In this document: positions 29,506-58,062 of the stretch, in pieces | How positions within the stretch are numbered: position 1 is the first letter of the stretch | How the letters are laid out: each line of letters begins with the position of its first letter | Source: Candidatus Spongiisociaceae bacterium | Lineage (GTDB): Bacteria > Actinomycetota > Acidimicrobiia > Spongiisociales > Spongiisociaceae | Length of the DNA: 64,000 nucleotides | Assembly (NCBI GenBank): GCA_965262915.1 | Contig: OZ253564.1 | Coordinates: 1,632,001 to 1,696,000 of the forward strand | Direction: 5' to 3' | Program-made: the position numbers and the translations under genes | The notes under the pieces: model-generated | Databases searched by the model: none | Told to the model about the DNA's origin: nothing | The model's input: only the letters and a program-made list of their open reading frames with translations

Positions 29506-29579
29506 GGGCCCGTAGCTCAAGTGGTCAGAGCAGCGGACTCATAATCCGTTGGTTGCAGGTTCGAGTCCTGCCGGGCCCA
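29506..29579 (+). tRNA. tRNA with CAT anticodon, most likely tRNA-Ile2 (lysidine type); CCA not encoded
   Basis: GGGCCCG/CGGGCCC acceptor stem, TAGCTCA...TGG D arm, GCGGA-CTCATAA-TCCGT anticodon arm, GGTTCGAGTCC T loop; resembles ileX-type tRNAs. Confidence 0.93.
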
Positions 29580-29793
29580 CAGCGGGGTCTTCGCGTGTTA
29601 TGGGCTGTTGAGTTCGCGGGTTAGGGGTGTTGGTGGGGGTTCTGGCCTGTTTCAGGGGTGTTCGGGTGTGTTTGGCCGGGGTGTGGGGGTGTGTGGCTGT
29701 GGTTACGGGTGGTGCTGGCCGCGACGGTCGGTTTCTGGACGCGGTTGATTGGACGGGTGGGTTCCCGTCGAAGAGGAGCGGTGGGGGGTTGGT

Positions 29794-31596
29794 TTATGGG
29801 GGTGCTCGGGTGGTTGTGGGGCTGGTGGGGTGCGGGCCTGGTTCGGCTGGTGGGGTGGTGTCGGGGGGTGTGTGGCCGGGATGGTCCGGGGTGGTGGGGT
29901 TGCGGTTCTTGCGTCGGCTGCCTCGTCCGGTTTGTTTGAGGTTGTGGATGACGGCAGCGGCGAGCGCGGCGAGTGTGTGGGCGCCTAGGCCGAACACGCG
30001 GCAGGATGCTCTGTTGAAGCTGCCGTCGTTTTTGATCATGCCGTTGACGCCTTCGACGGGGTTGCGGCCGGCGTAGTCGGTTGCCCACTTCGTGGTGCCG
30101 TAGGCGTTGCGCTGGTGGTTGTCGAGCTGGTCGACGCCGAGGGTGATCATGCCGTCGCAGCAGGATTCCCTGTCGGCGACGGCGGTGACGGGCAGGGGGC
30201 TGCGGCGCTTGCGGCGGTTGGCCCGGTTGGTGTTGTAGGTTCGGGCTGTGCTTTTGACTTTGCCTGCGCATTGGGGGCACATGATCTTCTTCCGCCCGTC
30301 GGGGAAGCGTCCGATGACTACCCATGCGTATTTGGCTCGTTCGTCGAACCATTTTTGGCGGTCGGTTCCGGTCAGCCCGTCGGATGGGCGGAGTAGGTGT
30401 TTTGGTGTCCATTCGACGAGAAAGGTGCCGCAGTTCACATAGAGGGGGGTGTTGTCTGTGCCTGCGGTGATGAGCTTGACGCCTTCCTGTCTGTCTTTGG
30501 CCTGGTTCATTACGATCTCCCAGCCGTGTTCACGTAGGGGCCGGACGAAGGTCGTTTTCTTCGCGGTGTAGTGCTGGTCGGCTTTCACGACATCGACGCG
30601 GGGTGCTAGCTGTTTCGCTTTGGTGGCTACCTGATATCCGATGGGTCCGACGTGTTGGTCGGCGGATGCGAGGACCATCGCGACGATGTATGGGGGGACA
30701 TATTCGAGGCGTTTGCCCCGGCTGATGGTGCGGGTAGCGACAGCAGGATGCAACCAATAGCCATTGAAGTATTCGGATTGTTGACTCTGCTTCGGGCTGC
30801 GGCGGCCGATGCCGGCTGCCTTGTCCTTTGTGTGCTGGACGTTGCCGTTGGGTTTCAGCACCGTGTCGTCGGGTATGCGGCCGGCTCTGATTTCGTCCTG
30901 GCGGGTGAAGTCGGTGGTACGCGCCCAGGTTGGGTAGTCGGTCGCGTCGATGCTGATCTCGATGACCTTGCGGGCGACCCATTTGGGGATCGAGGGTGCC
31001 AGGAAGCGGTCGACCATCCACTGCAGGTCGATGTGAGTGCCGTCAGGGGTATCGGCTCCGTCTTCGAGGAGGCTCTCCAACCGTTTGCTCTGGCGCCAGA
31101 CCATGTTGTAGGAGAGCAGGGAGCGGCCGGTGTCGGGGTCTAGCAGGCCCCATTCGATAGCGACCGCGGCGTCGAGGCCAGCCAGGACCGCGCAGTGCAC
31201 GGTTCGCATGTATCTGCCTTGTAGTTTGGTGGCGAGGAGCATGGCGGCGAGGAGCATCTGGGTGGTCAGAACGGGCTGTTCCCCCGGATGGTCCCGCAGT
31301 ACTTTGTCGATGTGGCGGACTACGCCGGTGCGGGCTACGTACGCATACATCCGACGGGCTTGGGGAGCGGTCGTGATTATCGGCTCGCTGGGTTCGATGC
31401 CTTCCTCGTCGGTGTCTGCACAGACGTCGGTGTCCAGGTAGGTGCCGGGGTCGGTGTCGACGTCGGGGACGGAGCTGGGGTAGTCCGCGGGCAGCGTCCG
31501 CAAGGAGTTCAGCTCATACAGCCGTGCCGGGTCGGGCAGGCCCCGCCTGGTGAAAAGCCGGCGGAGTCGGCGGGCAGCACACGACTTGCTGATCAT
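29794..31596 (-). CDS. DDE transposase, IS4/IS5-superfamily-like, with Cys-rich insertion domain
   Basis: ISIDATD (D1), VKADQHY (D2), YAGRNPVEGVNGMIK = Y-x2-R-x3-E-x6-K; CPQC and CC between D2 and E. Confidence 0.8.
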   Translation of the reverse strand: MISKSCAARRLRRLFTRRGLPDPARLYELNSLRTLPADYPSSVPDVDTDPGTYLDTDVCADTDEEGIEPSEPIITTAPQARRMYAYVARTGVVRHIDKVLRDHPGEQPVLTTQMLLAAMLLATKLQGRYMRTVHCAVLAGLDAAVAIEWGLLDPDTGRSLLSYNMVWRQSKRLESLLEDGADTPDGTHIDLQWMVDRFLAPSIPKWVARKVIEISIDATDYPTWARTTDFTRQDEIRAGRIPDDTVLKPNGNVQHTKDKAAGIGRRSPKQSQQSEYFNGYWLHPAVATRTISRGKRLEYVPPYIVAMVLASADQHVGPIGYQVATKAKQLAPRVDVVKADQHYTAKKTTFVRPLREHGWEIVMNQAKDRQEGVKLITAGTDNTPLYVNCGTFLVEWTPKHLLRPSDGLTGTDRQKWFDERAKYAWVVIGRFPDGRKKIMCPQCAGKVKSTARTYNTNRANRRKRRSPLPVTAVADRESCCDGMITLGVDQLDNHQRNAYGTTKWATDYAGRNPVEGVNGMIKNDGSFNRASCRVFGLGAHTLAALAAAVIHNLKQTGRGSRRKNRNPTTPDHPGHTPPDTTPPAEPGPHPTSPTTTRAPP

Positions 31597-32546
31597 GGCC
31601 CCAACCCCTGGGCGGCGGCATCTACCGGATCCAGGTCGGCAGCGGAAGCGGCTAGCAGCGCGGTGAGGGTGTCACCCGACAGCGGACCTGCTATCCGGCG
31701 CAGCGCGGACAGAGAAGTACCCGCGTGTAGGTGGGCGACCAGCCAGGTGGAACGGGCACGCCGCACCGACAGGGTACGGCCACTGATCCCAACCTGCCGG
31801 CACAACATGTACACCGCTGTGCGATGCGTCGCCGTAACGAACCGTCCGCCGTCGGCCAGCTCCACAGCTTCCCGTACGAGGGATGTGTAATCGTGGCGTA
31901 TCGGCACCACACGCGGATGCCCGCCCCCGACCCGTACACCGAGCCGGTCGTTTCCGAGGTTGACCAGATCGCCGGTCACAGCCGACGCGATGACCGGGCT
32001 GAGCAGACCCGCCCCGAGAGTCGCGGCGACCACCCACCGACGTCCCGCAGGCTCCACCCGGGCCGGCAGGCAAGCCGACAGCCGGAACACTGCCTCGTCC
32101 CCCGGCGTATACGGACTGGACGGGGGTATGCGCCCGATCTGTTCCCCAACAGGGGCCTCGGCCCAGCCGTCCGGGAACACAGCCCGCCCCACTTGGCGTA
32201 GAAGCCACCTGGTGTGGCGCCGCCACATCAGACTCTTATGAGCGTTCACTTCGAACGCCCAGTACTCCACGTTGGCGGGACACAACATCCGGACATCCAC
32301 CGTCGCCGACACCCCGAATATCCAGGCACCGAACTCCGACGTAACCCGAAGCATCTCGCGGACCATCGAAACGCTATCCGGATGAACAGCCGCAACCCAA
32401 CAACGAACCGTCGGCCACACCAGGGATTCGAGGTCGCCGCTGCCATCCGGATAGGTGTCCCACACCGGTGGGCGCCACAACGACAGCCTCGCCAACACTC
32501 CCGCGGACAGATCCGCAGACAGCGGAAGGCTGGTGAAGCAGGTCAC
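31593..32546 (-). CDS. Tyrosine-recombinase-fold protein, catalytically degenerate
   Basis: LGAGLLSP...TGDL, VRVGG.HPRVVPI and LSVRRARSTWLVAHLHAGTSLSALRRIAG align to integrase boxes, but R, H, H and Y are absent; 4-nt overlap with the transposase start. Confidence 0.7.
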   Translation of the reverse strand: MTCFTSLPLSADLSAGVLARLSLWRPPVWDTYPDGSGDLESLVWPTVRCWVAAVHPDSVSMVREMLRVTSEFGAWIFGVSATVDVRMLCPANVEYWAFEVNAHKSLMWRRHTRWLLRQVGRAVFPDGWAEAPVGEQIGRIPPSSPYTPGDEAVFRLSACLPARVEPAGRRWVVAATLGAGLLSPVIASAVTGDLVNLGNDRLGVRVGGGHPRVVPIRHDYTSLVREAVELADGGRFVTATHRTAVYMLCRQVGISGRTLSVRRARSTWLVAHLHAGTSLSALRRIAGPLSGDTLTALLAASAADLDPVDAAAQGLGP

Positions 32547-57225: not shown

Positions 57226-57484
57226 TAATCCCGCAAACCACCACCCGTAGCCCGCCGCCACCCCGTCAGGTCGCAGCACAGGAGCCCTTTCATCCCAGAC
57301 CCATCATCGCGGAGCGGCTCCTCTCCCTCCGTCAAACCCCCACCAAATGAATTATCGGGGGTTGGAAATGGCCGAGTGGTTTATCGGCGAGATGAAGTCG
57401 ATCTAGCCGACCCCGGACCCTTTCGACCATCGGCGCGGGATAGCGGTACGGTGTTCTACGCAGCGCAGGCGGCGAGCCCTACAC

Positions 57485-57632
57485 GCACCATGTCCGGCCG
57501 GCGCATCATCTGGTCAGCAGCTACGACGCCATAGCCGTTGAATGGTTGAACGTGGCGGGGATGCTCCGCACCAATATGTTTTCGCACAGGATGGCTTCGC
57601 AGCGTTGGGCCGCCTATGACCACATATTGGAA
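57485..57632 (+). pseudogene. TnpB (IS200/IS605) RuvC-II fragment
   Basis: HLVSSYDAIAVEWLNVAGMLR...W.....LE resembles the TnpB IAVEDLNV.GM motif. Confidence 0.55.
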
Positions 57633-58062
57633 CGCGGGGAGTGGCCGAGTCGGCGAACGAACGGTGAGCAGGGGCTCGGGATACGGGCGAAACACCGATT
57701 CGCAGCGACTGGGAAGAGGAGACAGATTCCGGCTGAGGAGGAGACAGGCTCCTCGGACCCCTACCATTACCCCTGGTCAGGGGTGGTCGCGAAGACCCCA
57801 CAGCCATCTCAGCCAGCCGCCGTGCCGTGCGCCGCCGCCGTCGGCGCCGCCCACATCACCACACCACAGCAACGCCGCCACACATGTCACACGACACGAC
57901 GACGGTGGAGTCTTCCGCGTCTTCGGCCTCGGGCCGGGCCAACACGGATCGCGTAGGACCGTACTCAACCAACCGCTGGGGGCAGCGACTCCGCTAGGAT
58001 AGTTACGTAGCGTTGCGGATATACTCGATGTATTACGGGGTGCGTATTACCATCCGCACGTA

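Follow-up and report, generated by a model that had tools for sequence, protein, structure and literature searches.

The question raised by this locus is what placed a block of some 28 kb, closed at both edges by the same five bases, directly behind an intact transfer RNA (tRNA) gene. The locus lies in a 64,000-nt stretch of contig OZ253564.1 from a Candidatus Spongiisociaceae bacterium, called the window here; the window's genome is a single 5.06-Mb contig. The block is probably an array made by a new family of DDE transposons that home to the 3′ ends of tRNA genes. An autonomous unit of this family would consist of one operon encoding a transposase of the Tn5/IS4 superfamily and a catalytically dead, tyrosine-recombinase-like partner protein.

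Boundaries and junctions of the array at tRNA-Met

As shown in Table 1, the block follows tRNA-Met(cat), which was the sole tRNA detected by ARAGORN in the window. At the 3′ boundary of the tRNA (29579-29595) the sequence reads ...CCGGGCCC, then ACAGC, then the 12-bp end GGGGTCTTCGCG. At the far boundary of the block (57788-57804) the order is CGCGAAGACCCC, ACAGC and CATCTC, the last of which belongs to an unrelated flank. The discriminator A (29579) is the first base of the 5-bp repeat, and the tRNA is undamaged. An initial annotation of this DNA had described a perfect ACAGC duplication that includes the discriminator A and leaves the tRNA intact, and the sequence at both boundaries bears this out.

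The 12-mer occurs nine times in the window without mismatch, on the plus strand at 29584, 44697, 49669 and 55155 and on the minus strand at 43256, 44680, 49652, 51143 and 57788. One further copy, at 43273 on the plus strand, has a single mismatch. When up to 2 mismatches were allowed, 33 matches were found against 14.2 expected, and none of 100 shuffles reached 33. Alignment of the junctions gave the order right end, 5 bp, left end at 43268 (ACGCA), 44692 (ACAGC), 49664 (ACAGA) and 51155 (ACGCA), the left end after the last of these being the variant GGGATGTTCGCC, and a fused junction at 55155. The fused junction equals an intact junction of the related public genome G401 minus 25 bp; these were deleted between two GGGGT repeats, so that the tip of the right end, the spacer and the start of the following left end are missing. 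All array units have the same orientation. The initial annotation had listed these same junctions, with one orientation throughout, and the alignment confirms them. Its count of six units agrees with the junctions; unit 5 is a mosaic, and the six units probably arose from about three insertion events of one-unit or multi-unit blocks, followed by deletions.

About 215 nt of the left end and about 117 nt of the right end are conserved between units, and the unit ends are mutually 61-92% alike. The left end has the terminal motif in three direct copies, at positions 1, 24 and 72. In the right end only the terminal 12 bp form the inverted repeat, accompanied by a palindrome and two copies of GAGGAGGWGACAGA. 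This asymmetry fits oriented insertion. A second end subtype, GGGATGTTCGCCAC with the internal repeat GATGTTCGCCAC, was seen at window positions 51160-51200 and at genome positions 1596053, 1597049 and 687522. Units with ends of this subtype share the arrays, and none of them carries a transposase gene in the window's genome. Further GGGGTGTTCGCG sites (genome 2801258, 2810909, 3669032 and 3753393) were considered as a third subtype and rejected, as they lie inside unrelated multi-copy insertion sequences.

Table 1. Positions of the array features in the window (ORF, open reading frame; aa, amino acid residues; AF2, AlphaFold2).
Feature	Position	Strand	Evidence
tRNA-Met(cat), target gene, intact	29506..29580	+	ARAGORN, sequence
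ACAGC target duplication, left copy, starting with the discriminator A	29579..29583	.	Sequence, junction alignment
Unit 1, autonomous, 13.7 kb, ends GGGGTCTTCGCG / CGCGAAGACCCC; missing from G401	29584..43267	+	
DDE transposase, 600 aa, Tn5-like fold (predicted), unit 1	29794..31596	-	Alignment, AF2, Foldseek
317-aa partner, tyrosine-recombinase-like fold (predicted), unit 1	31593..32546	-	Foldseek, hhalign, alignment
HKD (PLD) nuclease-Snf2 helicase fusion, 1065 aa, unit 1 cargo	33717..36914	+	Pfam; PADLOC C3a139, E 2.8e-96
Type IIG restriction-methyltransferase-like protein, 1203 aa, unit 1 cargo	36863..40474	+	Pfam Eco57I, TaqI_C; PADLOC REase_MTase_IIG, E 9.6e-135
664-aa ORF, unit 1 cargo, no family match in Pfam, NCBIfam or PADLOC	40973..42967	-	
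Junction spacer ACGCA, putative fossil duplication within a two-unit block	43268..43272	.	
Unit 2, non-autonomous, 1.4 kb; missing from G401 at this position	43273..44691	+	
DUF4160 ORF, unit 2	43486..44358		
Junction spacer ACAGC, regenerated target duplication	44692..44696	.	
Unit 3, autonomous, 5.0 kb; 99.8-99.9% identical to the first unit of G401	44697..49663	+	
Transposase, unit 3	44907..46697	-	
Partner, unit 3	46694..47647	-	
DUF2442 ORF, unit 3	47899..48519		
Junction spacer ACAGA; same spacer at this junction in G401	49664..49668	.	
Unit 4, non-autonomous, 1.5 kb	49669..51154	+	
DUF433 ORF, unit 4	50372..51007	-	
Junction spacer ACGCA	51155..51159	.	
Unit 5, mosaic remnant, variant left end GGGATGTTCGCC	51160..55154	+	
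Transposase fragment, unit 5	52563..52646		
DUF433 ORF, unit 5	53281..53949	-	
Truncated internal right end, unit 5	53961..54043		
Fused junction, intact form in G401	55145..55166	.	
Unit 6, non-autonomous, 2.6 kb	55155..57799	+	
AbiEii-like ORF, unit 6	55213..56157		
DUF6036 nucleotidyltransferase ORF, unit 6	56686..57225		
ACAGC target duplication, right copy; flank after it 100% identical to G401	57800..57804	.	Sequence, G401 comparison

Comparison with a nearly identical locus

The public genome G401 carries the same locus in another state. Identity to the window is 99.67% over 9804 nt of upstream flank, tRNA included, 100% over 6201 nt of downstream flank and 99.5-99.9% for units 3, 4 and 6. 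The G401 array reads tRNA, ACAGC, unit 3, ACAGA, unit 4, ACAGC, V1, ACGGC, V2, ACAGC, V3, ACGCA, V4, ACGCA, V5, ACGCA, unit 6, ACAGC, flank. The window alone has a 15.1-kb block (unit 1-ACGCA-unit 2), which lies exactly between the tRNA and unit 3 with ACAGC on both sides. G401 is the empty site for this 15.1-kb insertion, and the window has the product expected when one two-unit block enters a regenerated target. Precise loss from G401, i.e. the reverse reaction, is possible as an alternative. Between units 4 and 6, G401 has five units where the window has the mosaic unit 5, whose right part (54408-55154) is 99.7% identical to V5. Arrays therefore change by whole units over a very short time, and they are also eroded by deletion.

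The claim of the initial annotation that such arrays are built by stacking is supported by this comparison, since the near-identical G401 lacks the two tRNA-proximal units. The same annotation had pointed to the empty site in related genomes as a check. The predicted empty-site 23-mer was found in none of 301 genomes of the order (up to 2 mismatches), but G401 has the site without the 15.1-kb block. In G378, of the same genus, tRNA-Met is unoccupied; it was rejected as an empty site because the DNA downstream is not syntenic.

The spacers bear on the history of the array. They would all be ACAGC if every insertion had hit tRNA-Met, and the presence of others therefore suggests that blocks keep the fossil repeats of earlier sites. 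The ACGGC spacer inside the G401 tRNA-Met array is the duplication of a tRNA-Glu site, and ACGAC, which follows an inner right end of a tRNA-Arg array in the window's genome, is the left-flank repeat at a tRNA-Leu site in genome G402. Nearly all spacers begin with A or AC, like discriminator-plus-trailer sequences. An inner spacer like ACGCA has the appearance of a duplication left over from another site. The other spacers are enclosed in blocks that have ACAGC, or ACAGA (one change, common to both genomes), at their edges.

Other target sites in the window's genome

The window's genome was scanned with end profiles, with exact and degenerate motifs and with ARAGORN. Besides tRNA-Met, units were found at tRNA-Glu(ttc) (three units, outer repeats ACGGC / ACGGC), at tRNA-Arg(cct) (a 26-kb block, outer repeats GCTCC / GCTCC) and at a T-arm/acceptor/CCA fragment beside a copy of ISL3 (one unit, genome 476302-479044, outer repeats ACCAA / ACCAA). 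At all three the repeat begins at the discriminator position and the left end points toward the tRNA. Rfam gave no tRNA or transfer-messenger RNA at the tRNA-like fragment (genome 476270-476301). An ISL3 copy ends about 75 nt upstream of this fragment, and ISL3 copies flank its unit on both sides. Four of the six left ends that start an array in the window's genome stand at a tRNA or a tRNA-like T-arm/acceptor, and 3 of 50 tRNA genes are occupied.

Some right ends of this genome stand alone, with no left end following. Three of them lie in the tRNA-Arg array (genome 4168564-4181162), where they are followed by ACGGC, ACGAC and GCCTA and continue into non-transposon DNA. Another, at genome 1604004-1604015, 2.5 kb past the tRNA-Glu array, is followed by ACAGC, the repeat of tRNA-Met. 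Such solitary right ends may reflect capture of flanking DNA through a distant right end. An integrase gene (765573-766052) lies just upstream of a further solitary right end at 766914-766925. The load of mobile DNA in this genome is very high, with 23 PF00589 recombinase genes and many multi-copy insertion sequences. A match to the actinobacterial small RNA family Ms_IGR-7 (genome 686223-686341, plus strand; 44.9 bits against a gathering score of 45, E 4e-6) stops two bases short of the target repeat of an array on the minus strand.

Target sites in other genomes

In G403 a unit is inserted at tRNA-Glu (ACACA / ACACA), and another left end lies beside a tRNA-Arg-like 3′ part. G402 has a left end at tRNA-Leu(cag), with flanks ACGAC versus CCGAC, and a left end at each of two tRNA-like fragments, where one of the insertions has GATAG on both sides. 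An insertion at tRNA-Met was found in G803 (ACACT / ACACT) and a left end at a tRNA-Met-like 3′ part in G865 (ACCAC). A truncated transposase gene abuts tRNA-Val in G831. The left end faces the tRNA in every tRNA case observed. In the on-register cases 26 nt separate the GG of GGTTCGA (T-loop) from the left tip, as counted by hand on the sequences. Identical 5-bp repeats were found on both sides for nine outer or single-unit pairs across four genomes, namely ACAGC, ACGGC, GCTCC, ACCAA and ACTTA in the window's genome, ACACA in G403, GATAG and TCAGT in G402, and ACACT in G803.

Several observations weigh against homing to tRNA genes or against the array as assembled. In the window's genome, a left end at genome 537249, which is a 75-nt fragment, has no tRNA beside it, and a minus-strand block of three units (ACTTA / ACTTA) was inserted at a non-tRNA site, 12 nt after an older right end. 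In G402 the left end at tRNA-Arg(cct) is off register by +3 and has no matching duplication, two units have clean duplications (6-bp AATAGT; TCAGT) at sites without tRNA features, and three additional left ends have non-tRNA flanks. One left end at tRNA-Glu in G875 is one base out (+1), and one left end in G831 is not at a tRNA. Six sequencing runs from three studies contain at least 80% of the sampled words, and the contigs of four of these runs, which were compared, are all short-read and end at repeats, so that they neither confirm nor refute the tandem order. The same short-read contigs in two runs join 44691 to 49669, which would be a form without unit 3; this join lies inside the repeated ends, with 28 letters on one side against a 31-letter bridging rule, and it was treated as unreliable and not used.

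Targeting is strong, general for tRNA genes, oriented and precise, yet it is preferential rather than absolute, because insertions with duplications exist at non-tRNA sites. The initial annotation had proposed an insertion specific for both site and orientation. The orientation holds for all tRNA cases observed. The site preference recurs in the copies of the same genome and at tRNA-Met, -Glu, -Leu and -Arg in four other genomes, but the insertions outside tRNA genes do not agree with strict specificity.

It could be argued that the array is an artefact of assembly, or a product of homologous recombination and duplication, and that the closeness to tRNA genes reflects the survival of harmless insertions. 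The repeats of 100-200 nt at each junction can indeed mislead assemblers, short-read contigs break at repeats, and unit deletion and recombination are clear from the 25-bp fusion, the mosaic unit 5 and the differing inner units of G401. However, the units differ in content and their ends show the divergence given above, unlike identical repeats that have been collapsed or expanded, and the same array grammar recurs in G401, G403, G803 and G831, which were assembled separately. Selection cannot produce a single-nucleotide register and one orientation at five tRNA species, and the duplications bound whole blocks exactly. We consider this explanation very improbable.

Distribution of the family

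A word-indexed search of 5.8 billion proteins, which together with genome samples provides the figures on rarity, returned 26 clusters of the transposase and 32 of the partner. The family was present in 4 of 401 genomes of a class sample, with full-length copies in the window's genome only, and in 2 of 401 genomes of a phylum sample, where the one match besides the window's genome was an unpublished genome, which enters this tally alone. In the family-level group it was present in 8 of 29 genomes including the window's own; without that one, the tallies give 5 of 7 in the window's genus. The family thus appears rare and concentrated in one genus of uncultured Actinomycetota, and this concentration may explain why it has been overlooked.

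The DDE transposase

The transposases of units 1 and 3 are 596-600 aa long. Residues D217, D340, E515, Y508 and R511 are invariant among 19 aligned relatives, and K522 was read from the sequence. The Y508-R511-E515-K522 (YREK) motif is intact, with the spacing Y-2-R-3-E-6-K, which we take to be the IS4-type signature. The AF2 model had a mean predicted local distance difference test (pLDDT) score of 79.5, and the top Foldseek match of the model was Tn5 transposase 1muh (E 5.5e-5, prob 1.00, template-modelling (TM) score 0.30/0.37). The protein falls below curated thresholds, with 22.9 bits against a cut-off of 25.1 for PF13751 (DDE_Tnp_1_6) and 25.8 against 270 for NF033551 (IS1182). A PDB profile search with its sequence gave no match. 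Its N-terminal part includes helical regions, and a conserved CxxC...CC insertion is present. Judged by its catalytic residues and predicted fold, the mover of the array is an intact Tn5-like DDE enzyme of the Tn5/IS4 superfamily. Elements of the IS4 family (Tn5/IS10 type) are defined as single-gene elements with a duplication of about 9-12 bp, and a 5-bp duplication is unusual in the IS4 family proper, which speaks against a simple assignment to it.

The partner protein

In units 1 and 3 the partner gene lies directly upstream of the transposase gene on the minus strand, and the two reading frames overlap by 4 nt. It stands in this place at 3 of 3 full-length transposase genes in the window's genome and at 3 of 3 (full-length or near) in G401. 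The same two-gene order was found on the Streptomyces clavuligerus plasmid pSCL3 (NZ_CP086232.1), where a 322-aa protein precedes a 579-aa DDE protein that is 27% identical to the transposase; PGAP labels both genes hypothetical protein, and no tRNA lies within 8 kb of the module. The pSCL3 module resides in a cultured organism, which would be useful for experiments.

The Foldseek matches of the partner model, among those listed down to rank 48, were all tyrosine recombinases or integrases, the best being XerA (E 2.3e-4). When the partner family was compared by hhalign with seven recombinases of the window's genome, an alignment of 230 co-linear columns was obtained (E 6e-4). In the protein atlas, 8 of the 30 nearest clusters belong to a 'putative integrase' set (26% of members with PF00589), and the neighbours are actinobacterial. 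Of the six catalytic positions R-K-H-R-H/W-Y the partner keeps only the second Arg (R265); the hhalign alignment replaces Arg-I by Leu, Lys by Arg/Gly, His by Arg, His by Pro and the Tyr position by Leu. No conserved C-terminal Tyr is present across 22 partner sequences. These alignments and structural models give moderate support to a recombinase-fold protein without the chemistry. The initial annotation had spoken of an IS4-like transposase pair; one member is a Tn5-like DDE enzyme, but the other is a recombinase-like protein without catalytic residues.

The assignment of the partner to the recombinases is weak by each single test, and this must be held against it. PF00589 matched none of 22 members of the partner family even at E 10, the AF2 model was poor (pLDDT 62.3) with Foldseek TM scores of 0.24-0.27, the hhalign probability was just 28%, and a PDB profile search gave E 0.51. 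The partner had no match in Pfam or NCBIfam.

If the partner were an active, unconventional recombinase, the units could be circular cassettes that recombine with a tRNA site, as in integrons or tRNA islands. Its recombinase-like predicted fold agrees with such a scheme, and the junctions resemble core sites, with 12-bp inverted arms around a central spacer. However, the 5-bp repeat is derived from the target and differs with each target (ACAGC, ACGGC, GCTCC, ACCAA, ACACA, GATAG, TCAGT, ACACT), which therefore indicates staggered strand transfer rather than crossover in a shared core. The target flanks, CCTGCCGGGCCC before and CATCTCAGCC after the insertion point, are unlike the arms. Five of the six catalytic positions, the Tyr included, are gone across the partner family, and every autonomous unit has an intact DDE/YREK enzyme. 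This scheme is accordingly given very little credence.

Many tyrosine integrases home to this same part of tRNA genes, and tRNA 3′ ends are classic integrase targets. The partner is likely to act as target selector, reading T-arm/acceptor DNA and recruiting the transposase; we propose this role by analogy, because tyrosine integrases commonly use this part of the tRNA and because TnsF provides a precedent (PMC10293859, as described in part of that paper). The DDE transposase alone might instead recognise the tRNA 3′ end, with another task for the partner, such as end binding, control of the transposase or action at the junctions. As a selector, the partner would bind both tRNA-gene DNA and the transposase. 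In favour of the alternative, the N-terminal helical regions and the CxxC...CC insertion of the transposase could bind DNA, the 12-bp inverted arms with a short spacer between them make the junction the type of site bound by recombinase-fold proteins, and the distant Streptomyces module has no tRNA near it. On the other hand, the operon with its 4-nt overlap has survived deep divergence, an argument that the partner has a core function, and in Tn6022 target selection by a dead recombinase domain is proven (PMC10293859). We regard recognition by the transposase alone as rather unlikely, and selection by the partner remains the preferred reading.

Proposed mechanism of array formation

The following scheme is proposed for the tRNA-homing transposon. 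The element would insert through a cut with a 5-bp stagger that begins at the tRNA discriminator, at a distance of 26 nt from the GG of GGTTCGA, and the left, transposase-proximal end would be oriented toward the tRNA. The tRNA would stay intact and the duplication would restore the target. With the target regenerated and no sign of target immunity, new elements would land between the tRNA and the previous insert. Repeated landing would yield the right end-5 bp-left end junctions, and the newest units would be those proximal to the tRNA. A left end might work with any of the right ends that lie downstream of it; multi-unit blocks would then move together and the inner spacers would be fossils of earlier sites. 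Transposition is presumably by cut-and-paste, and blocks would move as composites. Small units without a transposase would be mobilised in trans, and the cargo would comprise toxin-antitoxin-like and restriction genes.

A further step, put forward only tentatively, concerns the origin of the system. A tRNA-integrating tyrosine integrase may have lost its chemistry and been recruited by a Tn5-like transposase as the subunit that reads the target. This would give a two-protein system of about 920 aa that inserts with single-nucleotide precision at the discriminator base in one orientation, without ATPase regulator or target immunity, and writes ordered, integron-like arrays whose blocks move to other tRNA genes.

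The cargo varies between arrays. The three cargo genes of unit 1 (33717-42967) are possibly a defence system. The tRNA-Arg array carries an MmeI-type enzyme, Fic and nested insertion sequences, and the unit at the tRNA-like fragment carries an AbiEii-like gene.

Comparison with known systems

To our knowledge, site-specific transposition in bacteria is known almost solely from Tn7-like elements, in which three to five proteins are required. If the scheme above is true, a Tn5-type enzyme with one small accessory protein would be a second, independent solution, in the safe harbour of the integrases, and would provide a case, open to testing, in which a dead recombinase has been turned to targeting beyond the Tn7-like elements. 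It would also be a transposon-based route to cassette arrays with restriction and toxin-antitoxin-like genes. Should the two proteins be enough, they would amount to a small natural system that places DNA in a set orientation at a conserved genomic site, which could be attractive for genome engineering. The family is apparently undescribed, as judged from family libraries, the literature and the PGAP label 'hypothetical protein' of the distant homolog. A literature search, with the insertion sequence catalogues ISfinder and TnCentral outside its scope, gave no Tn5/IS4-type element that targets tRNA genes or is paired with a recombinase-like protein. The word 'undescribed' in the initial annotation holds to that extent.

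Tn7-like elements share with this family an oriented insertion just downstream of a conserved gene without damage to it, a 5-bp duplication, asymmetric ends with internal repeats, defence cargo and islands at the attachment site. However, a Pfam scan of 26 array ORFs gave no TnsA, rve-type TnsB, TnsC ATPase or TniQ; the initial annotation had noted that Tn7, Tn3 and integrase genes are missing here, and the scan agrees. The termini of Tn7-like elements are TGT...ACA whereas those found here are GGGG...CCCC, the enzyme here is Tn5-like, and stacking beside earlier copies suggests that target immunity does not operate. A type I-D CRISPR-associated transposon (CAST) uses a tRNA-Leu homing site, and its homing insertion lies 30-33 nt downstream (PMC10293859, as described in part of that paper), unlike insertion at the discriminator base. 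In Tn6022-like elements, according to passages of the same paper, an inactivated tyrosine recombinase domain in TnsF selects the target and works with TniQ and TnsABC, targeting comM (PMC10293859). By that description both systems are DDE transposons with homing to a single type of site, and both encode a catalytically dead recombinase-fold protein, which is predicted here. The partner here joins a single Tn5-like enzyme at a tRNA target, and its selector role is proposed by analogy.

IS1202-group DDE elements are reported to lie in a single orientation, with a constant 5 bp between them and the recombinase binding site dif/pdif (XerC/D) (PMC10132070). They have another transposase family and another target, and they are not known to have an element-encoded recombinase-like partner or cassette arrays. 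With IS4/Tn5 (IS50) the family shares the DDE triad and the Y-2-R-3-E-6-K spacing, and Tn5 transposase is its closest structure. It differs from them in the 5-bp duplication, the second conserved gene, the cargo, the long asymmetric ends, the site specificity and the sub-threshold Pfam and NCBIfam scores. The ends of the Tn3 family also begin with GGGG(TCT), and its duplication is also 5 bp. Here, however, no TnpA of about 1000 aa was found (PF01526 was unmatched in the array ORFs), and the inverted repeat is 12 bp rather than 38 bp. The partner lacks catalytic residues and is therefore no TnpI-type resolvase. Integrons and tRNA islands resemble the present arrays in that small, promoter-poor cassettes are gathered at a fixed site with new entries adjacent to it, and in the use of the tRNA 3′ end as a safe harbour. 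The arrays described here have no active recombinase, attC or att core; instead, it is transposon ends and target duplications that delimit each cassette.

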